Source: a virus (taxonomy: Duplodnaviria; Caudoviricetes). From it: 64,000 nt of DNA. Of this stretch, positions 265 to 10,827 are shown piece after piece (the first letter of the stretch is position 1; every line of letters starts with the position of its first letter). Location of the stretch: positions 64,001 through 128,000 of IMG/VR virus record IMGVR_UViG_3300032320_001447, one strand, 5' to 3'. A model generated the notes under the pieces. The model did not search any database and was not told the DNA's origin. It saw nothing but the letters and a program-made list of their open reading frames with translations. Position numbers and translations under genes: made by a program.

Positions 265-1986
265 TTAAACTACTTGTAAGTCTGCTACTACTACTAAACC
301 ATAGAATTCTGGACGGATCATAGTCATCGCGTAACGAGTCATGATACCTTTTCTTGGAGTGAAGGTATTTGGATCGTACACTAATGGAGTCATGATCAAT
401 GGAACATATGGAGAATATACAGCACCAGCTTCTAAGAACTGAGTACCACGGAAACCTAACAAGATAACGTTTTCAGTCATGTAAGGATTCTTGTACACTT
501 TGTAGCGGCTGTTTAAAGCACCTACTTTCTGAACACCGAATGCATATTTCATTGTATCTGCTGCACCGTCAGTATCAGCCGCAAATCCTGGGATTGATTC
601 CAAGATTGTAGCTACTGCTGGAGAAACTACCATGAAGTTAGCGCCGCCACGTAAAGTACGTTGGTGAATGATGTTAGAAACTTTTTGTAACTTGATACCA
701 ATAGTTTGGAACCAAGTCATTTGGTTGTAATACAAACCACTTGTATTAGAAGTAAACGCATTTTTAGAAGCGTTGATTTGATCACCAACTCTAGCTGACC
801 AATACTCTACTGTTGGAGCGTTAGTAATTAACATATCTAAGATTTCTAAGTCGATCTCTAAAGAGATGTACTCAGATAATAAACCTGTTAATTCAGCTTC
901 AGCATCTAAAGAATGGTAAGCGTTCAAATCTTGTGCAAATTCTGGAGTCCATTGTGCCTTTAACTTTTTAGTCTTAGCGCTGATAGTTTGAGACTTCATT
1001 TGTACGTTGATCTCAGGGATAACGATTGAAGTAGCAGAAGCAGCGTTAGGAACAGAGAAGCCTTGAGTAGCAGTTCTGTCTTCAAAATCACCTCTTGTAG
1101 CAAAATCAGTTGCTTTATTGTAATCAATCTCATAAGATCCTGTAGCTATTGTACGAATAGCTGTAGAAGAGCTTACATAAAAAGAAATTTGTCCTTGGTT
1201 AGCTGAGTTATAATTGGTGAATTGAGATAATACATTGCTTGAATTGATACTTGCAGCAGAGCTACTTATTTGGAAAGCTCTAATTGAATCTAAGTCAAAA
1301 TTAGGAAGAATCGCAGAAGCACTAAAGAAAGTGATTTTAGCGATTTGACCAGCAAGAAGAGATGCTGAGTAATCTGAATTAAACTCAAGTTCAGCGAAAT
1401 CTGACATTAATAATACTGAAGCTGTACCTGAGCTGATAGTTGGATAACCACCAGATGTAGATCCAGTCGCAGAAATTCTAGATGCAGAGAATTGGTTAGT
1501 TGAATAACCAAAACGGCCAGAACCATATAAAGCACCAGCAGCAGCGTTACCGAAGTTAGCTGTGTTTGTACCGTATAAAGAATCACCAGCAGTGAAAGGA
1601 GACTTATTGTTTCCGTATTGGAAATCTAAGAAGAATACTAAACCAGCAGGTAAGTTCATTGGTTGAACAGAAACGAATTCTTTTGCAGCGATTTGACCGA
1701 AGATCTTACGAACTAAAGGTAAAGCTACACCAGCCCATTGTTCTCCAGTGCCTGGAGTGAAAGTAGCGCCGTTTGAAACACCGCCACCTGTGTTAGAAGA
1801 CTCAACTACTAATTGCTTAGCTTGGTTTTCTAAGATCATAGCCATATTAGCTTGGTCGTTTCCTTCCAAACCTTCTAAAAGGCCAGATTTTGCCCACTTC
1901 TTAGAAAGCTTTTGAGCTACAGTAAACTGAGCTTGTTGAGCGTTCTGAGCAGACTCATTTAATAATGATTGTACTAAGTTTGCCAT
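265..1986 (-). CDS. gp23: Major capsid protein, T4 gp23-like, with Ser/Thr-rich insertion
   Basis: Motifs LENQ, LPLVR, VQPMNLP, KTKKLKAQWTPEFAQDL, DAEAEL..LSEYISLEID, YSPYVPL, FTPRKGIMTRY. Confidence 0.96.
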   Translation of the reverse strand: MANLVQSLLNESAQNAQQAQFTVAQKLSKKWAKSGLLEGLEGNDQANMAMILENQAKQLVVESSNTGGGVSNGATFTPGTGEQWAGVALPLVRKIFGQIAAKEFVSVQPMNLPAGLVFFLDFQYGNNKSPFTAGDSLYGTNTANFGNAAAGALYGSGRFGYSTNQFSASRISATGSTSGGYPTISSGTASVLLMSDFAELEFNSDYSASLLAGQIAKITFFSASAILPNFDLDSIRAFQISSSAASINSSNVLSQFTNYNSANQGQISFYVSSSTAIRTIATGSYEIDYNKATDFATRGDFEDRTATQGFSVPNAASATSIVIPEINVQMKSQTISAKTKKLKAQWTPEFAQDLNAYHSLDAEAELTGLLSEYISLEIDLEILDMLITNAPTVEYWSARVGDQINASKNAFTSNTSGLYYNQMTWFQTIGIKLQKVSNIIHQRTLRGGANFMVVSPAVATILESIPGFAADTDGAADTMKYAFGVQKVGALNSRYKVYKNPYMTENVILLGFRGTQFLEAGAVYSPYVPLIMTPLVYDPNTFTPRKGIMTRYAMTMIRPEFYGLVVVADLQVV

Positions 1987-2011: not shown

Positions 2012-3142
2012 TTATTTGATACCAGCTAATTTTTGCATTCTAGAGATAAAAGGATCTGATTCGATCGTTTGTGTCTGCTTAGGTGCAAGTCCAGCTGCTT
2101 GTGATGCAAAACCTTCGTTAATTGATTTCTTTTTAGAAACAGCGAAAGATTCATTTAAAGTAGCAAATGTGTTCTTAACTTCTTTAACTGTAGTAGCTCT
2201 ATCGAAAGCGTTGATAGCTTTGATCTTTTGAGATTCAGTTAATGATTTAGCTTTAAACAATTTGTTCATGAATAAGTACTTAGCGTTTAATAAGTTAACT
2301 TCTTTCAATTGAGTTTGTAAATAAGAGATTGTTTGATTTGCTTCTTTCAATTGTTTTTCAGTTCCAGGAACTACTAATTGCTCTTGCTCGTCCATCTCAT
2401 CTTTACCTTCTTCCATTTCTTCTTTCTTCTCTTCAACTTTTTCTTTTGAAGCTTCTTCTAATTCAGCAAAAATTTCGTCTAAATTGATGTCGTCAGTAGC
2501 TTCGTCGCCTTCTGCACCTTCTTCATCAGCTTGATAAGGAGCTAAAATGTCTTTTAATTGACCCAAAGTGATAGTGATTACTTTTTCTTCTTCTTCACCA
2601 TCCATTTCTTCTTCGTCATCCATTTCAACTTCTTCTTCACCGTCTTCTTCAGACTTTGCTTCGTAGTTCATGTCGTCTTCGCCTTCTTCCATTTCTTCTT
2701 CTGTGCCCTCTTCCATTTCGCCTTCGTGGTCTGCGCCTTCGTTAGCTAATGCTTCAAGTTCACCTAAGATTTCTTCAAGAGACGTTTCGTCCATTTCGTC
2801 AGCTTCATCCATCTCTTCAGTCTCGTCCATTTCCTCAGCTTCATCCATTTCTTCAGCCTCATCCATCTCTTCGGCTTCGTCCATTTCTTCTGCTTCGTCC
2901 ATTTCCTCAACTTCGTCAAGTTCTTCAGCATCTTTTTTGTGCTTCTTTTCCTCGACTTTGTGTTTCGCTTCGTCCATTTCTTCAGCTTCGTCCATTTCGT
3001 CAGCAGCTTCTTCAACGGTCTTGCGGAACATTTCTTTCAGTTTAGGTTCAAATGCTTCTTCTAATGCAGCTTTAGCGTTAGCCATGGCGCTAGCTCTTAG
3101 TGCTTTTGCGTCAGCAATTGCCTCTTTGTACAAATTTTCCAT
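2012..3142 (-). CDS. Prohead core scaffold protein (gp22-like position)
   Basis: Very acidic coiled-coil protein between protease and capsid genes; tandem EMDEAE repeats; C-terminal RMQKLAGIK. Confidence 0.8.
   Translation of the reverse strand: MENLYKEAIADAKALRASAMANAKAALEEAFEPKLKEMFRKTVEEAADEMDEAEEMDEAKHKVEEKKHKKDAEELDEVEEMDEAEEMDEAEEMDEAEEMDEAEEMDETEEMDEADEMDETSLEEILGELEALANEGADHEGEMEEGTEEEMEEGEDDMNYEAKSEEDGEEEVEMDDEEEMDGEEEEKVITITLGQLKDILAPYQADEEGAEGDEATDDINLDEIFAELEEASKEKVEEKKEEMEEGKDEMDEQEQLVVPGTEKQLKEANQTISYLQTQLKEVNLLNAKYLFMNKLFKAKSLTESQKIKAINAFDRATTVKEVKNTFATLNESFAVSKKKSINEGFASQAAGLAPKQTQTIESDPFISRMQKLAGIK
2787..2912 (-). repeat. 18-nt coding tandem repeat (EEMDEA x ~7) in scaffold
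   Basis: Repeated tccatttcttcagcttc-like units on the + strand. Confidence 0.85.
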
Positions 3143-3286: not shown

Positions 3287-3934
3287 TTATTTGGTCAAAC
3301 AACAAACTCCGCTCTGAGAACAGATTAGGTCTGAAATGAGACGGCTTGCTCTTTCGTACTTATTTGTCATAGCCATTTGTAAATCGATTGATTCTCTAAG
3401 ACCTGGTGCGCTTGGGTTGGCAACAGGCTTCATGTAAGCTCCGTAAGTTGATGGAGTGGAAACAAAGTCCCAACAAATAAGATCCAAGTCGTCTTCTACT
3501 TGAACCAAACCTTCGCCAATTGGAATAACAGATCCCAAAGCTCTAGAAGAGATGCCTACGGTGATGTTATTTGCGAAAAGTTGAGTAAGTATGTTTCCTG
3601 ATGGTGTAGGTAGGATTTCTATTTGACCGTAAAGATCTTTGTCTTGCCACCAAAGTTTAACGATGTTATGGCTAACGTTCTTTAAGTTAATAACCGTAGA
3701 CTCTGGGTGATCTAATTCTCCCAAAGCTCTATTTTCTCTGATTGGCCCGTTCATGTACTTTTCTACTTGCGTAAATAGTACTTCGTAAGGATATATTCTT
3801 TTGTTGGCATTTGGCTTATCGCATGCTTGCACTTGTCCGCTAACGATTAGGTTACCGTTTGTGTGTCTTCTACTCTCGTTCAATGAAACTGTAGGAGTAA
3901 AGTAAGCAGTCTCTATAAGTAATTGTTTTGCCAT
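3287..3934 (-). CDS. gp21: Prohead core protease, T4 gp21-like
   Basis: NANKRIYP, ALGELDHP, VSHNI, GISSRALGS, WDFVSTPS motifs. Confidence 0.95.
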   Translation of the reverse strand: MAKQLLIETAYFTPTVSLNESRRHTNGNLIVSGQVQACDKPNANKRIYPYEVLFTQVEKYMNGPIRENRALGELDHPESTVINLKNVSHNIVKLWWQDKDLYGQIEILPTPSGNILTQLFANNITVGISSRALGSVIPIGEGLVQVEDDLDLICWDFVSTPSTYGAYMKPVANPSAPGLRESIDLQMAMTNKYERASRLISDLICSQSGVCCLTK

Positions 3935-5313
3935 TATGCTACAGTTGTTGAGGTCGCAGATTTAATGCCCTTTTGTTTGTAATTTTGAGCTGTCTTCGTG
4001 CCTTTTCCAGTTGGAACTACGTCTAAAGTAACTTCTTGACCTTGAGGATTTTTACCTTTTACAATATCCATAGCTTCATCTACGTCTTTTTTCTTTTTAT
4101 CTAAACCCAAAGCCTTTCTTAGTTTTTCAACAATTCCCATAGTTTTCTTTTGGCGATCTGCGTCTATCTTAGAAGGGAAATCTGCAATTCCACCGAATGT
4201 TTTTTCTCCTTTTTTGTCCCAATCAGACCACATATTATCTCTTGCTTCTTTATCGTCAGCTTGAGATTTCATCGCGGCTAACTCTTTAGCTTTATCGATT
4301 ACGTTGCTTTGTCTGTTAATAATCATTGGCTCTTCGCCTTCTCTATGTATTTCTAATTCTAAAGTACCACCAATTATATTTTTTATAATACCGGTTTGAC
4401 TTTTGAATTCTTTAACGTCCTCTTCTGGTAAATCAACCTCTTGGCCCATGCCGTAAATAGGATGCATGTCCTCAGTTAACTCAACTTTTTTTTTAAGAAG
4501 GTCTTTTAAGATATCCAATTGAGCAGACTCTTTCATCATTTTAACACCTTTTGGATTACCTCTCTTATTCTCTTTCTTAGAAGCTTTTGTATTTGCTTTA
4601 GCATCGTTGAAGCCTTTAATCTTCTTCATGCCATTGTACTTATCAACAAAATTTCCGTCTTTAACTGGAGTCATGCCCAATCTAGCATCGGCTTTTTCAA
4701 TCTTTGCTGAGTTAGAAACTTGTAATTCGTCGTATGCAGTAGGATCTTTTGCTAATTTCTTAGTAGCTGTTGCAGTAGCTTTTGCGTAAGCCAAATTGTT
4801 AATTTGACCTCCTTTTAATAATTCTGCTTCAATGCCTTTCTTTAACAAGTAAGGATGGATGTTATCTGCAGCAGACGCTTCACTTAGAGATATTTTTTTT
4901 GCTGCTAAAGTTGGATCTTTTTTTGATGCGTTGTCCATGTAAGACTTATCTCCCCACCAAGCAATTACTGAATTGGTATCTGCGGTAGAATTGAATCTAG
5001 GCCCAGCTTTAAAAATATCTACGTGTTGTAGTTTGTTATTTGCGCGTATTAAGTTTTTTGCAAAACTCATAGCTTTTTGTACATCAGAAAACTTTTTAGC
5101 TTGTCTAATTCCATCAGAGTAATGAACTTCGTAATTCTCACTCATTTCTGATTCTTTAATAACGCCTTTGTTTTTAAGAATCTTAATAGAATCTTCGTAA
5201 GAAGTCATATTGGTGATAAAAGGTAACTGTTGGTCCCTTCTAACTTCGTATAAGAATTTTTCACGGCTGATTTCTCCGGCTCTGTGTTTCTTGAATAAGA
5301 TTGATACTGTCAT
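3934..5313 (-). CDS. Hypothetical head-cluster protein (putative prohead core/internal protein)
   Basis: 459 aa, Lys/Glu-rich, several L/I-x-E sites, own ATATTTAT motif upstream. Confidence 0.55.
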   Translation of the reverse strand: MTVSILFKKHRAGEISREKFLYEVRRDQQLPFITNMTSYEDSIKILKNKGVIKESEMSENYEVHYSDGIRQAKKFSDVQKAMSFAKNLIRANNKLQHVDIFKAGPRFNSTADTNSVIAWWGDKSYMDNASKKDPTLAAKKISLSEASAADNIHPYLLKKGIEAELLKGGQINNLAYAKATATATKKLAKDPTAYDELQVSNSAKIEKADARLGMTPVKDGNFVDKYNGMKKIKGFNDAKANTKASKKENKRGNPKGVKMMKESAQLDILKDLLKKKVELTEDMHPIYGMGQEVDLPEEDVKEFKSQTGIIKNIIGGTLELEIHREGEEPMIINRQSNVIDKAKELAAMKSQADDKEARDNMWSDWDKKGEKTFGGIADFPSKIDADRQKKTMGIVEKLRKALGLDKKKKDVDEAMDIVKGKNPQGQEVTLDVVPTGKGTKTAQNYKQKGIKSATSTTVA

Positions 5314-5460: not shown

Positions 5461-6399
5461 TTACTTTAAACTTTTAACCTTTTTGTAAATTTCTGCTAGC
5501 TGTCTTTCTAGCTTATTCACAACCTTACCAGTTCTTGGACTATAGTCCTCTTCCAATTCCATTTTCATGTTGGTAGAGTATTCCATTAACCTGTTTATTT
5601 CGTGTAACTTTTTGTTTATTGATTTCAATGCCTCGTGTAAAGCATCTTTGTTAGGTCTTGTTGCAGCCTCTCTTTTGAATTTATTGTAAGTCAAAGCTTC
5701 ATTTAAATCTTCGCTGCCGTATAAATGACTATCGCTAAAATTGTCGCCTATTACTTCTATATCTTGAGTTCCAAAGTCCATCATCATATCGTAGGCTAAA
5801 TCTTCATCGTCTGTATAGTATGTGTCTGATCCGTTTAACTCTACGCCCATGTAACTTGGATTGTCTCTAAGTACATCTAAAGCTCTTTTTGCATCTCTAA
5901 CTGAAACTTTAACGTAGTACTTTTTCTCTTCGTCTTCTGTTTGCATTTCTTGATCAGGTTCTGCTTGCTTTTTGATATATCTTTTAGAAACATCGTCGAA
6001 TGACCAATCGTCTTGATTAAATTCTTGGTAGTTTCTAGCTTGCTGATATTCCATTGGAGATAAAGAGTCTTTGTCCAAGTTTACTGGCTGTAAAACTCCC
6101 TCTTCCATTTCTTCGAACATCTGCTTGTATTGAAATCCTCCTTTAGATGGTCTGTTTGGAATAGATGGTGCAGATTTCCAACCCCATTTTTTTTGAGGAT
6201 ATATTTCTGCTTTACCTGCAGCTAATTTTGGTTCTACGTCTTTTACCTCGTTTTTCTTCTTTTTGAAAGCTTTCGTAGTTGAGTATTGTTCTCCAGTGCC
6301 AGGCGTAAATGTAGCTCCGTTAGAAACTCCACCACCAGTCGCACTTTCCTCTGATAGTAATCTTTGTGTTGCGAATTGATTATCGAAAGGTTTCTTCAT
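5461..6399 (-). CDS. Hypothetical head protein carrying a copy of the capsid N-arm peptide
   Basis: 312 aa; contains TGGGVSNGATFTPGTGEQ, identical to the major capsid protein. Confidence 0.65.
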   Translation of the reverse strand: MKKPFDNQFATQRLLSEESATGGGVSNGATFTPGTGEQYSTTKAFKKKKNEVKDVEPKLAAGKAEIYPQKKWGWKSAPSIPNRPSKGGFQYKQMFEEMEEGVLQPVNLDKDSLSPMEYQQARNYQEFNQDDWSFDDVSKRYIKKQAEPDQEMQTEDEEKKYYVKVSVRDAKRALDVLRDNPSYMGVELNGSDTYYTDDEDLAYDMMMDFGTQDIEVIGDNFSDSHLYGSEDLNEALTYNKFKREAATRPNKDALHEALKSINKKLHEINRLMEYSTNMKMELEEDYSPRTGKVVNKLERQLAEIYKKVKSLK

Positions 6400-7253
6400 T
6401 ATTTAGATACTCTTTTTAGCTCGTCAATTAATTCACAATATTGTAAAATTCCAGTAATGGTTTCGTCTTTAATAGCGATGCCCTCTTTTAATGGCTTTAT
6501 GAATTTAATTACTTCTTCTGCTTTTATTTTAGTAACTTTATCTTCTACTTTTTCAGTTTGCTCGATAAGTTCTTGCTTGATCTCTTTTAACTTAGTGTTT
6601 AAAAATTTTCTTAAATTAGCAGAATCAGATATGCTAGAAACGTATTCTTTTAAAATGCCCTTTTGTCTTTCAGAAAGGCCTTGGTATTTCTTATTGAATT
6701 TCTCAACCAATAATTTGTAGGTCAAAAGTCTGATCTCTTTGTCTTCATTCATTAACTCTTGAACCATTGATTGAGGCGCTTGCATGTCCTTAATAGAGTC
6801 TTGAGTAATGTGCTCCAAAAGATTGATCTTGTTTAGAACGATCTGCTTGGTATCTGAATTAGGGCTGTTTTGAGATTCAAATATTGTATAAACAGAAGCG
6901 TAAGGCTTGTAATTCTCTATCTTGGCTTTAAAAAAATCTTCTAGGTTGTAGTTCTTTTTAATTTCTTTGATTAGATTATACTTGGCTTGGCTGAGTGTGT
7001 CGTGGCTTAATTTCTTATATTGTTCTAAAATGGTTGAAATAAGAATCTCGGCCCTAGCTTCTGAAAGTTTTGGACTGGTTACGAAAGCGCTGTACAAGCT
7101 GTACTCTTTTCCCAATTCTGTGTTGGTAAAGTGCTTTTTAAGTATTTTAACAGCTTTAGAGTCCTGATTGTTCAAAAGGTCTGAAGTTGTCTGTCTTACT
7201 AAAAGTTCAAATAAAATACCGGTGTTACGATATTTAGAATGTTTAATTCCCAT
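6399..7253 (-). CDS. Hypothetical helical protein downstream of portal
   Basis: 284 aa, IKHSKYRNTGILFELLVRQ N-terminus, stop overlaps next start, late-type motif upstream. Confidence 0.6.
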   Translation of the reverse strand: MGIKHSKYRNTGILFELLVRQTTSDLLNNQDSKAVKILKKHFTNTELGKEYSLYSAFVTSPKLSEARAEILISTILEQYKKLSHDTLSQAKYNLIKEIKKNYNLEDFFKAKIENYKPYASVYTIFESQNSPNSDTKQIVLNKINLLEHITQDSIKDMQAPQSMVQELMNEDKEIRLLTYKLLVEKFNKKYQGLSERQKGILKEYVSSISDSANLRKFLNTKLKEIKQELIEQTEKVEDKVTKIKAEEVIKFIKPLKEGIAIKDETITGILQYCELIDELKRVSK

Positions 7254-7293: not shown

Positions 7294-9216
7294 CTAATCT
7301 AGATTGTCAATGATGTTGTCTTCGCTTAATAGGCTTGATTGTTCAAAAAGTTGAGTCTTTCTAGCATTCTGCTTCTCGAACATTTTCTCAATTGAGTTTT
7401 TGTTCTGTAAATAGATAGCCATAGTGTTCTCCATATTCAAAGCTCCACCTTTAAAAGTAACGCCAACCTTATCTTCCCTAGTCTCGGCATTTTGAGTATT
7501 CATATCGTAAACTCCAGCTCTTCCAAATGGAGATTCGTCGGTTCCGTATATAGATTTGTATTTTTGTGGTCTTCCAGGAATCTTCATTGGCTCTTTTGGA
7601 TTTGTCTCATCGTAGCCTCTAGGCACATCTAGCGTACCATCACCTTTTCCACCGTATAAGCTTGCGATCTGATGAGGTGTACCAAATGCTTGGCCTGTTT
7701 CTGCTGGATCGTTTCCTTCCTCTGCGATTTGTTTGTATCTAAACTTGCGCTTTTGATCTTCTACAATAAGGTCATCTAACTCATCAAATTCGTCCTCAGA
7801 GATATTAAATACGTTCTTCCAAATATAATCTCTTGGTAAAGAAGAGTTTTCAACCGCTTGATTAGCAAGGTCAATCTTCTCTTTCATCATAGCAATTCTC
7901 TCTTGCTCGTATATAATAGAAGGATTAGTTAACTGAATATCGAAGTTAGTAATTGATTCGTTAGTGTAACCGTGAGCGTACAAGTGAACCAATGCCACTT
8001 TCTTCAATTCAGATACAATGATTCTTTGGATTCTCTCAATTGTTCTTGCAAAACGAATATCTTCAGCTGCTAAAGTTGCTTTACCTGTTAAGTCCTTTTC
8101 GTATCCCATGAATGCTTTAGGAACCTTTAACGCTGCAAATAGTTTCTCTCTAAAGTATTGAACGTCTTCGATAGCGTTGTACTCAAGACCTTTTGCGGTA
8201 TCAATTCTAGTAGATTGATCGTTACCTCTAACTGGAATAAAGAAGTCTTCCAATAAGTTTTGTTGGTTGAACTTCATATTGTATTGACCAGTTTGAGCAT
8301 CGATAAGTGGAGTTTTCTTCATCTTACCGATCATACGTTGAATGTAGTTCTCAACCTCGTTTGGTGGGATGGCTCCCACGTTAACGTAGAATGTTCTTCT
8401 TTCTGGGGCACGCGTAATTCTATGAATCAACATCGCATCTTCGATTAAAGTATATTGCTTGAATAGCTTTCTTGCTGGTTCCAAATAAGATCTACCGTAA
8501 GGTAAATAGTTTACGTCTCCTAAAAATCTAAAGTGAGCCATTTCGTACAAGTCAAACCAAATTCCTGGATCTTGATTGTTATAGGCCGAAGTGTATCCTG
8601 TTGTAGAACTTATAGCTGCGTTAGGATCGAACTTAAATCTTACTTCGTTTGGATTTTTTGGATTAAAACCTTCTTGTCTAACGATGTTGTAAGCAGAGAA
8701 TGGAATTACGTTGTAAACTCCAAACTTTTCTGCAATTTCTAATTTTAAATAGAAATCACCGTATTTACACATGTTTCTAATCCATGACCATAAGTTAAAT
8801 TCTATATTTAAAACTGAATAGAATAGGTTTTCTAGTAAATTTTGAATGTTTTCATCTGCAGAAGTAATGTGTAGTACTTGACCTTGATCGTTTTTTAGAG
8901 TACACTCATCTGCAATAATATCTAACGCAGAAGCAATGATAGCATCTGTATCCATTGCATCATAATCTGCATATATTTGTACACGAGCTGATTGATAGTT
9001 CTGAGCTAGATTTAGGTTAACTCCATAAGCTGTAGACGTAGTGTATACTTTGTGGAATCTATCAATTAAGGAGTTAGTTTGAATCACACCAGAAGTCTGA
9101 ATGTGTTCAGTATCTATCACTTGTAAATTCTTGCCGCCAGAATCTCTAATAATGACATCGGTCGAGAAGAGTCTTCTTAGCGCCGAAAATAGGTTGTCTT
9201 GTTTGTTTTCTGCCAT
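7294..9216 (-). CDS. gp20: Portal protein, T4 gp20-like
   Basis: ALDIIADE, YGRSYLEPARK, EDAMLIHRITRAPERR.FY, EDFFIP.RG, ALKVPK, EDIRFAR motifs. Confidence 0.95.
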   Translation of the reverse strand: MAENKQDNLFSALRRLFSTDVIIRDSGGKNLQVIDTEHIQTSGVIQTNSLIDRFHKVYTTSTAYGVNLNLAQNYQSARVQIYADYDAMDTDAIIASALDIIADECTLKNDQGQVLHITSADENIQNLLENLFYSVLNIEFNLWSWIRNMCKYGDFYLKLEIAEKFGVYNVIPFSAYNIVRQEGFNPKNPNEVRFKFDPNAAISSTTGYTSAYNNQDPGIWFDLYEMAHFRFLGDVNYLPYGRSYLEPARKLFKQYTLIEDAMLIHRITRAPERRTFYVNVGAIPPNEVENYIQRMIGKMKKTPLIDAQTGQYNMKFNQQNLLEDFFIPVRGNDQSTRIDTAKGLEYNAIEDVQYFREKLFAALKVPKAFMGYEKDLTGKATLAAEDIRFARTIERIQRIIVSELKKVALVHLYAHGYTNESITNFDIQLTNPSIIYEQERIAMMKEKIDLANQAVENSSLPRDYIWKNVFNISEDEFDELDDLIVEDQKRKFRYKQIAEEGNDPAETGQAFGTPHQIASLYGGKGDGTLDVPRGYDETNPKEPMKIPGRPQKYKSIYGTDESPFGRAGVYDMNTQNAETREDKVGVTFKGGALNMENTMAIYLQNKNSIEKMFEKQNARKTQLFEQSSLLSEDNIIDNLD

Positions 9217-9225
9217 ATCTTTATA

Positions 9226-10827
9226 TTATAAAAGCCAAGTTAAATCTTGTTGTTCTTTTCCCATTGGAGTTGCGATCTCTTGTTGCCATGGGTTATTACC
9301 ATAATTAGTGTAAGACTGATACATAGGACTATCTTCTCCAGCTTTTGAGAAAGCATTTAGACTAGCGTGAGTTAGACTTTCTGCTGTTCTTCTGAATCTT
9401 AAAGAAGTTTCTCTCAAATACATAGCAATCGAAAAAGCCATCACTAAGTCATCGTTGTACCCCGACATAGCTTGTTGCTTACCGTTCTTCCATATAAATA
9501 CGCGAAGCTCCTCTAATAATCTAACTGATCTTATAGTAACCGTTTTGTTTTCTATAAAGTCTCTCATCTTTTCTAATACAGAAGGTCTAACTTTAGGACT
9601 CATGGTAAATCCAGGTACCAAAGTTGCATTTCCGTAGTGCACTTGTAAATAGCTGTTTAAGTCAGCGTTGCTGTCAGATCTATGACTAAAGTGAATATTT
9701 GAGTATCCGCTCTCTACCACGCCTTGAACTACGTCCCAACCAATATTTGCGTTTTCAATTACCAATAAAGCTTGGTTGTATCTAGTTGCTATCGCTATAA
9801 GCTCGTTGGCAAATATCCTGGTGTCTGTTTGGGCTTTAAATTCAGCTACTTGTGTCAATGTCTCTGTATCTATAACATGATAAGCAGAGTAGTCCATTGA
9901 GTCTCCCCTCGCTACGTCAGCTACTACCATATAGTATGTGGTGGGTTTAGGATATTCCCAAATCCAAAGTGCTTTTTCCTGACCTTCTCTATTGATTGGC
10001 TCGGATATCATATTGGCTTCGTACCAAGTTAAAATTTCTGGAGGAATTACTGTATTACCTGAAGTAGCAAAGTCACAATCACACTCTTGAGCTGCGTTTC
10101 TAACTCCGAGATCTATGTCTTGCATATTTCTCCAATCTTGATTTCTTTCAGGGTGAACCGTCCAAGGTAACGAGATTGGTAAGAAGTTATTCTTTTGTAA
10201 TTGAGCTTCTGTGTAAGACTTGTGGAACCAGTTACCAACACCGTTAGGAGTAGATAACGCGATACATCCACCACCCGTAGCCAAGGTCATCTTAGCCGCA
10301 GTGTAGATAGTTTCAATGTTATCGATAAACGCGGCCTCATCTATTACCAAGAGCGACACGGCTTCCGAACGACCTGCGTCACCGGCTGCTGATACTGCTT
10401 TGATTTGAGAACCGTTTGTTAGTCTTAAACTTAATGCGTTGTTAGAAGTTGCTGCAGCTCCGATCTTCATCCAGTTAGGTAAGTTATCGTAAGCGAATCT
10501 AACCTTTGTAACCATGTTCTTTGCAGTGTCCTGCTTAGTCGCGATTACAAGAATATTCTTATCTTTTGAAAATACCATCATCCATAAAGAGTACGCAGAC
10601 ACTAAGGTAGAGATACCCAACTGTCTTGACTTATTTATGATTGAATCCGGATGTTTTTGAAATAGTTTTAGAACCTTTTCTTGGAACGGATAAAGGTCGA
10701 ACAGCATTCGACCTCTTTGTGGGTGTTGGATCATATAATATTTCTTCATGAAATATACAGGATCTTGAGCGCACCTTACAAACTCTTCCTTAATTCTTTG
10801 TTTTATATCGATTTGACTCTCTGACAT
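9226..10827 (-). CDS. gp17: Terminase large subunit, T4 gp17-like
   Basis: LYPFQ adenine motif, KSRQLGIST Walker A, LVIDEAAF Walker B, STPNG, DVARG..DYS nuclease motif, DDLVMA. Confidence 0.96.
   Translation of the reverse strand: MSESQIDIKQRIKEEFVRCAQDPVYFMKKYYMIQHPQRGRMLFDLYPFQEKVLKLFQKHPDSIINKSRQLGISTLVSAYSLWMMVFSKDKNILVIATKQDTAKNMVTKVRFAYDNLPNWMKIGAAATSNNALSLRLTNGSQIKAVSAAGDAGRSEAVSLLVIDEAAFIDNIETIYTAAKMTLATGGGCIALSTPNGVGNWFHKSYTEAQLQKNNFLPISLPWTVHPERNQDWRNMQDIDLGVRNAAQECDCDFATSGNTVIPPEILTWYEANMISEPINREGQEKALWIWEYPKPTTYYMVVADVARGDSMDYSAYHVIDTETLTQVAEFKAQTDTRIFANELIAIATRYNQALLVIENANIGWDVVQGVVESGYSNIHFSHRSDSNADLNSYLQVHYGNATLVPGFTMSPKVRPSVLEKMRDFIENKTVTIRSVRLLEELRVFIWKNGKQQAMSGYNDDLVMAFSIAMYLRETSLRFRRTAESLTHASLNAFSKAGEDSPMYQSYTNYGNNPWQQEIATPMGKEQQDLTWLL

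Follow-up and report, generated by a model that had tools for sequence, protein, structure and literature searches.

Why would a phage encode the same 18-residue peptide twice, once in its major capsid protein and once in a second protein of unannotated family? The question is raised by a 64,000-nucleotide stretch of viral DNA (the window), part of a genome (G000) of 174,359 bp and 35.5% GC that is a single contig rated complete. Every gene in the first 14 kb of the window is on the minus strand. The head module runs on that strand in the following order.

9226-10827, minus strand: large terminase (TerL)
7294-9216, minus strand: portal protein of the T4 gp20 type (PF07230 at 2.2e-70)
6399-7253, minus strand: ORF284, without family assignment
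5461-6399, minus strand: ORF312, between portal and protease; a head-module protein of modular build whose family is unannotated
3934-5313, minus strand: ORF459, without family assignment; possible cut site VIKE↓S (an arrow marks a predicted scissile bond)
3287-3934, minus strand: prohead serine protease of the T4 gp21 type (PF03420 at 1.2e-22; phrog_207 at 1.6e-45)
2012-3142, minus strand: probable scaffolding protein, 376 aa, acidic and repeat-rich, assigned from its composition and its position between the protease and capsid genes
265-1986, minus strand: major capsid protein, 573 aa, T4 gp23 type (Pfam PF07068 Gp23 at 4.4e-76)

The capsid protein also matches T4 gp23 in a phmmer search of the PDB (1e-29). 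A genome-wide scan gave no second Gp23-family gene or gp24-like vertex paralogue besides the capsid gene; presumably the major capsid protein itself, or some unrecognised protein, makes up the fivefold vertices. Judged by the capsid protein, the nearest deposited phages are Flavobacterium phage immuto (53%) and Microcystis phage Mel-JY01 (50%), with Rhodothermus phage RM378 more remote (35%), and the phage is thus a distant T4 relative. The gene order in immuto and Mel-JY01 equals that of the window's head module, and both have syntenic homologues of ORF284 and ORF459 with the motifs MxIKHSKY.NTG and ILKNKG(V/M)I.E in common. The head genes of LR756508 and RM378 are arranged differently and are uninformative for comparison. 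The scaffold candidate is extremely acidic, carries tandem EEMDEA-type repeats and found no family match in Pfam and PHROG searches. It is syntenic with acidic proteins of immuto and Mel-JY01; by eye, its acidic counterparts in these two phages and in locus L198 have little further similarity. A ribosomal protein S21-like gene lies in or beside the head module of Mel-JY01 (L033:8110-8337) and of LR756508 (L200:8783-9022).

The segment common to the capsid protein and ORF312

A preliminary description of this DNA, made from the letters alone, had reported the peptide TGGGVSNGATFTPGTGEQ in both proteins. Both minus-strand coordinates do translate to TGGGVSNGATFTPGTGEQ, and our recount agrees with the 9 differences in 54 nucleotides, all at synonymous third codon positions. 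By hand count this corresponds to a pS of ~0.59 over ~15 synonymous sites, with dN = 0. The protease-type sites said to precede the two copies are also in place, LVVE at 1801-1812 and LLSE at 6349-6360. The local BLOSUM62 alignment of the capsid protein with ORF312 scores 113, as against 36.5 ± 5.1 (maximum 65) for 300 shuffles. The similarity extends beyond the 18 residues to ~33, including the cut sites; capsid ENQAKQ-LVVE↓SSNT aligns with ORF312 DNQFATQRLLSE↓ESAT, the ORF312 segment reading DNQFATQRLLSEESAT... The shuffle tests rule out chance or low complexity as the cause of the similarity. A DNA or RNA element is ruled out as the cause of the conservation because the differences sit exactly at third codon positions. 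The parts concerned are the following.

1732-1830, minus strand: capsid residues 53-85, paralogous to the start of ORF312 (last part of the delta propeptide, cut site, N-fist equivalent)
1801-1812, minus strand: predicted capsid maturation site LVVE↓S (E62↓S63), from sequence and alignment to mature gp23*
1738-1791, minus strand: capsid copy of TGGGVSNGATFTPGTGEQ, residues 66-83, translation checked
6286-6339, minus strand: ORF312 copy of TGGGVSNGATFTPGTGEQ, residues 21-38, translation checked, in a predicted disordered stretch

In the whole genome the motif is confined to the capsid ORF and ORF312. The exact 18-mer was found in both genes only in this genome and at loci L005 and L021; at L001 the capsid copy is one residue off.

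The capsid copy had been placed at the start of the mature N-terminal arm, and the alignment to T4 bears this out. HMMER pairs capsid residue 74 with residue 16 of mature T4 gp23*, so that the T4 cut (E65↓A66) comes to lie within about four residues of capsid E62↓S63; the peptide therefore covers the first ~21 mature capsid residues. The conserved N-arm follows it (WAGVALPLVRK here, IGPAVMGMVRR in T4 gp23*). The first 25 residues of T4 gp23* form the N-fist, which touches four subunits (PMC9958956). In the cleaved, unexpanded head, gp23 residues 66-105 are disordered and point inward, probably contacting the core, and at expansion they move to the outer surface (PMC9546572); the N-fist is ordered only once the head is cleaved and expanded (PMC9958956; PMC9546572). 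The capsid peptide thus sits in the place equivalent to the T4 N-fist, straight after the maturation cut and ahead of the conserved N-arm. Unlike in T4, a separate, non-capsid protein here has the peptide at its predicted mature N-terminus. We know of no second T4 protein with the N-fist peptide. As judged from the alignments, the first ~40 residues of ORF312 are a paralogue of the capsid segment that holds the maturation site and the first 21 mature residues.

The ORF312 family and its cut-like sites

ORF312 has no match in Pfam or PHROG, and none to PF07068, the HK97-like Gp23 domain. The ESM Atlas returned only virus clusters labelled 'hypothetical protein' (score 0.80), and tblastn with ORF312 and with the minimal family member P0013 gave zero matches in 50,697 GenBank phage records. 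Searched against 1.84 billion proteins, a profile of its first 115 residues retrieved 88 representative clusters at E ≤ 1e-3. When 48 members of this family were compared with Pfam, just two spurious single matches and no known domain were obtained. The phages that carry the family form a clade of uncultured freshwater viruses, distant relatives of T4, and have its gene between those of the portal and the gp21-type protease.

The members run from a leader through optional inserts to the segment corresponding to TGGGVSNGATFTPGTGEQ (the tag), which a basic stretch and a conserved domain follow; behind a variable middle they end in a C-terminal helical domain, and [LIV]xE sites stand between the modules. 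The leader, M..FNNQFATQ(K/R)LR(Q/E)E, resembles the capsid ENQAKQLVVE. Many members then have one or more inserted domains and a second LxE-type site (LDEE, IDEE, LQE, LTE and others) ahead of the tag. The tag follows the pattern [ST]xT[GN]xG-GATFTPGTGEQ-[YM]A and leads into the lysine-rich stretch; the conserved domain reads EPKLAAGKA..WGWK.APSIPNRPSKGGF, with DAPRLAG as an alternative variant. The middle part is freely replaced, the C-terminal helical domain (~80 aa) is conserved, and minimal members of 69-84 aa comprise just leader, tag and basic tail. ORF312 itself divides as follows around its tag.

6349-6399, minus strand: leader or propeptide, residues 1-17, with the predicted cut site LLSE↓E at its end; the family as a whole conserves F(N/D)NQFATQxLRxE
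6100-6279, minus strand: basic stretch KAFKKKK, with the domain best conserved in the family, EPKLAAGKA..WGWK.APSIPNRPSKGGF.YKQ, which has invariant columns in alignments A2 and A3
5698-5706, minus strand: internal LNE↓A site, residues 232-234, bordering the C-terminal domain; the alignment column of E234 hardly varies
5464-5697, minus strand: C-terminal helical domain, residues 235-312, from the AF2 model and conserved across the family

AF2 with the family alignment predicts residues 12-63 to be disordered (pLDDT < 50), a small alpha/beta domain at 160-217 and three C-terminal helices over 230-311 (pLDDT 72-88). Foldseek against the PDB (to April 2026) gave no match at E ≤ 0.001 for this model, whose mean pLDDT is only 61. 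The small syntenic proteins immuto p73 and Mel-JY01 p178 look similar to ORF312 by eye, yet they align locally with their own capsid proteins no better than shuffles do, and the family HMM reaches them only at E = 0.049 and 3.4, so that a relationship is weakly supported.

The preliminary description had set both sites in the context of T4 gp21-type cleavage, and a PF03420 protease is encoded in the same module. T4 gp21 cleaves after L/I-x-E (PMC9026906). The N-terminal and module-border sites of ORF312, LLSE17 and LNE234, are of the aliphatic-x-Glu type by motif. The reported succession of protease-type site and tag extends to the family: in 29 of the 31 tag-bearing members scanned the tag stands 5-13 residues past an aliphatic-x(x)-E motif, a count that includes the second [LIV]xE sites behind inserts. 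Members with inserted domains keep the second LxE-type site immediately before the tag, which suggests that a free N-terminus beside the tag is under selection. An aliphatic-x-E also precedes the C-terminal domain (LNE↓NYSKFK and variants) in all 36 members, out of 48, in which the start of that domain was located through its N(Y/R)SxFK-type motif. The majority of leaders end in LRQE, with R at P3, unlike the canonical T4 L/I-x-E.

Sites of this kind occur elsewhere in the window. The prohead protease begins MAKQLLIE (3911-3934, minus strand), with an LIE site near its start; T4 gp21 likewise has a LIE-9 site, and the motif suggests self-processing at LIE. Several minus-strand ORFs (starts 13856, 15132, 15819, 16207, 52094 and 1986) begin with a short M..(L/I)L.E stretch similar to T4 capsid-targeting sequences; the capsid protein itself starts in this way, with MANLVQSLLNE. 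Proteins with such N-termini are candidates for packaging.

Tag and capsid protein in related phages

DNA encoding GATFTPGTGEQ was found in 114 IMG/VR stretches. Taken together with the other loci compared, these gave 39 distinct capsid contexts and 35 non-capsid contexts, and all 35 of the latter are in the ORF312 family. This 11-residue core is the consensus of the family and near-invariant in the capsid protein across the clade. The idea of a copied 18-mer is weakened: for the most part the peptide is an ancestral motif of the whole family. Conservation acts at the level of the protein only, as had been proposed, the same residues being encoded by the same codon with a frequency of ~0.39-0.46. 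Own-genome capsid/ORF pairs do not share codons above cross-genome pairs within a clade, and the similarity is therefore not maintained by recent DNA exchange. Wholesale recent gene conversion is ruled out as well: the ORF312 copy is 9-20 nucleotides from every sampled capsid copy, and own-genome pairs have no excess of synonymous codons in common. The codon comparisons indicate that the core GATFTPGTGEQ[W/Y] is under purifying selection in both proteins clade-wide.

Strict tracking of a phage's own capsid protein, which the preliminary description had led one to expect of the orthologues, was not seen. The closest relatives have the tag TGGNAPADTAATFKAGDGMQ while their capsid protein still reads TGGGVSNGATFTAGTGEQ. 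Among the 31 closest loci the capsid-identical tag marks a single sub-lineage (the window, L001, L005, L006, L021, L022, L024 and L025); most of the others have TGGNAPADTAATFKAGDGMQ and three have TGG-TANFTAGTGEQ. The capsid proteins of loci with diverged tags retain TGGG[VI][ST]NGATFT[AP]GTGEQ. The tag (6280-6340 of the window, minus strand; loci L002-L031) is in fact a hypervariable patch in a gene that is otherwise ~90% identical, present as a capsid-identical allele, as TGGNAPADTAATFKAGDGMQ and as a shortened allele. Phages whose capsid genes hardly differ have exchanged tag types (L005 and L008, which differ by 10-20% from ORF312 to the scaffold gene), and some members of the family have lost the motif. 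The diverged tags of the nearest relatives, together with these losses, mean that exact mimicry is not required.

Co-variation of tag and capsid protein is nonetheless seen at the level of clades, and not significantly within them. In each of the three clades compared, the tags resemble the capsid protein of that clade most; inside a clade, the tag and capsid protein of one phage match no better than those of different phages (p = 0.07, 0.75 and 0.22). A naive permutation p of 6e-4 reflects clade structure, and we do not take it as a sign of fine-scale tracking. V[ST]N tags occur only alongside V[ST]N capsid proteins. A separate capsid clade (support 100/100) has capsid TGG[GN]VTNGATFTPGNGEQW; its ORFs form another sub-family, into which a helical domain is inserted, and roughly half of these ORFs read TTGGGVTNGATFTPG[NT]GEQY, including a derived T-to-N change. 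In one clade tag and capsid protein alike have the derived PGNGEQ, at locus L138 SAGGGTTAGATF is paired with SVGGGTTSGANM, and the two proteins of one lineage agree in their short TGTG linkers and in EQY. Distant FK.G.GME-type tags (P0039 and P0040) are on contigs too short to include their capsid partners. These patterns are suggestive of a coarse, clade-level tracking with few independent events.

Possible roles and known head proteins

The reading that we prefer, tentatively, is that the tag docks a basic ORF312 fragment on the capsid shell after cleavage. The prohead protease would cut ORF312 at LLSE17↓E18 and LNE234↓A235, freeing a disordered fragment that consists of the capsid-like N-terminal peptide followed by the lysine-rich stretch. 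Since the tag equals the capsid N-fist, it could make the N-fist contacts with neighbouring capsid subunits, and would so dock the fragment on the shell with its basic part facing the DNA. Docking would take place at acceptor sites that have no donor, such as may exist at the portal vertex named in the preliminary description, or at positions left empty by expansion. The leader and the C-terminal helical domain would serve incorporation into the core and then be cut off. Cleavage, location and shell binding of ORF312 are all steps that we infer.

Two main arguments speak for docking, and some further evidence agrees with it. The conservation pattern of the ORF tag is that of a peptide with, by analogy to T4, a role in lattice contacts; and selection appears to keep a cut site directly ahead of the tag despite domain insertions. 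The tag region is also predicted to be disordered, as the gp23* N-terminus is before expansion, and the clade-level co-variation of tag and capsid protein fits as well. Other considerations point the other way. Each capsid subunit supplies its own N-fist in cis, so that free acceptor sites may be few. The T4 N-fist ends on the outer surface, which is awkward for an internal protein. The nearest relatives have the strongly diverged tag TGGNAPADTAATFKAGDGMQ with the capsid protein unchanged, tracking within clades is not significant, and the LRQE ends of the leaders differ from the canonical T4 L/I-x-E site. The mimicry of the capsid N-arm proposed in the preliminary description is partly supported, by the paralogy, the position after cut-like sites and the constraint at the protein level, and weakened in that the capsid protein is not strictly tracked. 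A broader form of the docking reading, in which the tag would be a portable capsid anchor that occupies N-fist acceptor sites, tethers a basic polypeptide and exchangeable cargo domains and co-evolves with the capsid protein at clade level, we consider rather doubtful. The occurrence of the tag across related metagenomic phages suggests a natural capsid-docking tag, undescribed so far.

It is unlikely, in our estimate, that the ~33 shared residues are instead an extended recognition element of the prohead protease, with a P side and a long P' side. ORF312 would then be cut at the capsid protein's time and rate, and the tag would have no role after cleavage. Such an element would explain similarity on both sides of the scissile bond (NQ..Q.L..E↓.S.T), a tag directly behind a cut-like site and the retention of new sites before the tag in insert-bearing members, and a conserved protease could account for a conserved motif. 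But the tag is absent at the other predicted sites (LNE↓NYSKFK, MANLVQSLLNE, MKLKDLLKE), L/I-x-E suffices for T4 gp21 (PMC9026906), and the strongest conservation lies at P'11-P'21, distant from the bond.

We also think it improbable that the tag acts at the prohead stage, the ORF312 peptide binding the capsid protein's core partner and being co-assembled, with the tag as a capsid-targeting signal retained on the product. The probable contact of T4 gp23 residues 66-105 with the core inside the unexpanded head (PMC9546572) speaks for this, as do the location of ORF312 at the map position of the T4 core genes 67 and 68 and the likeness that T4 gp67 shows to the gp23 delta region as far as the cut site (score 49, attained in 3 of 500 shuffles). 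A targeting signal, however, needs no adjacent cut site, and that of T4 is removed; the acidic, repeat-rich, fast-evolving scaffold candidates are a poor match for a clade-wide 11-residue motif; and the conserved leader and C-terminal domain of the family could already do the targeting.

Some DNA traces bear on a last alternative. The capsid gene of the window has GGC ACT GGA (1744-1752, minus strand), the codons of the ORF312 copy, where 15 other related capsid genes have GGT ACT GGT, and capsid FTAG alleles have 'A GCT GG' in common with diverged ORF tags; the two patches suggest occasional short-tract ectopic gene conversion. It is very unlikely that the tag merely survives from an ancient partial duplication, renewed from time to time by such conversion and with no common function: these patches and the exchange of tag types among phages with nearly identical capsid genes would fit, but synonymous sites are near saturation (pS ~0.59) with zero amino-acid changes, codon sharing of own-genome pairs is not above that of cross-genome pairs, and no part of the family is better conserved than the motif, the other modules being freely replaced.

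Returning to docking on the shell, we can compare ORF312 with several known head proteins. A search of the literature found no description of a capsid N-terminus copied in a second head protein. The T4 vertex protein gp24 is likewise a second head protein with sequence in common with the major capsid protein; it has the full HK97/Gp23 fold, whereas ORF312 has only ~33 such residues and no Gp23 domain. P1 DarA and Hdf are internal proteins of the head that undergo protease processing; they are fixed to the shell at defined lattice positions and turn a basic face to the DNA (PMC12810830). They are a precedent for processed, shell-anchored, DNA-touching internal proteins. Unlike the proposed tag, their anchors are folded domains and loops at the shell's inner surface, and they have no copy of the capsid N-terminus; the Foldseek comparison of the low-pLDDT ORF312 model gave no match to their folds.

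The T4 core proteins gp67 and gp68 are similar in gene position, between portal gene 20 and protease gene 21 (gene 67 directly after the portal gene), and in processing by gp21, for which ORF312 has predicted sites of the same type. Sequence homology of ORF312 to gp67, gp68 or the IPs was not found in Pfam and PHROG, and hhalign with gp67 and gp68 gave a probability below 1%. In T4 itself, gp67 (L195:782-1024) aligns with gp23 (L195:2946-4511) propeptide residues 20-67 (FLIE↓GE against FLTE↓AE, score 49, 3/500 shuffles), and the gp22 C-terminus aligns with the gp23 N-terminus (score 55, 5/500 shuffles). The likeness of gp67 to the gp23 propeptide, little noticed and possibly related, may be the T4 counterpart of the ORF312 tag principle, with the difference that it is to the removed propeptide and that of ORF312 is mainly to the retained mature N-terminus. 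By analogy, the ORF312 system could work like the T4 core and internal proteins.

T4-type heads are a model for the sorting of proteins into a capsid and their maturation there, and another parallel in design is the T4 capsid-targeting sequence (CTS) of IPI-III and Alt. There too, a short N-terminal propeptide ends at a Glu cut site and variable payloads are carried on a conserved signal. The CTS is ~10 aa long, precedes the cut and is discarded; the conserved peptide of ORF312 (residues 21-38) is C-terminal of the predicted cut after E17 and is predicted to be retained. If the tag does dock on the shell, it would represent a new way of anchoring internal proteins or DNA to the capsid, and a short, transferable, ready-made tag for loading cargo into T4-like heads; many genes of abundant freshwater phages that are now labelled 'hypothetical' would also gain a role in assembly. 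Where the known T4 signal is lost on maturation, the ORF312 family would thus keep the capsid's own mature N-terminus.
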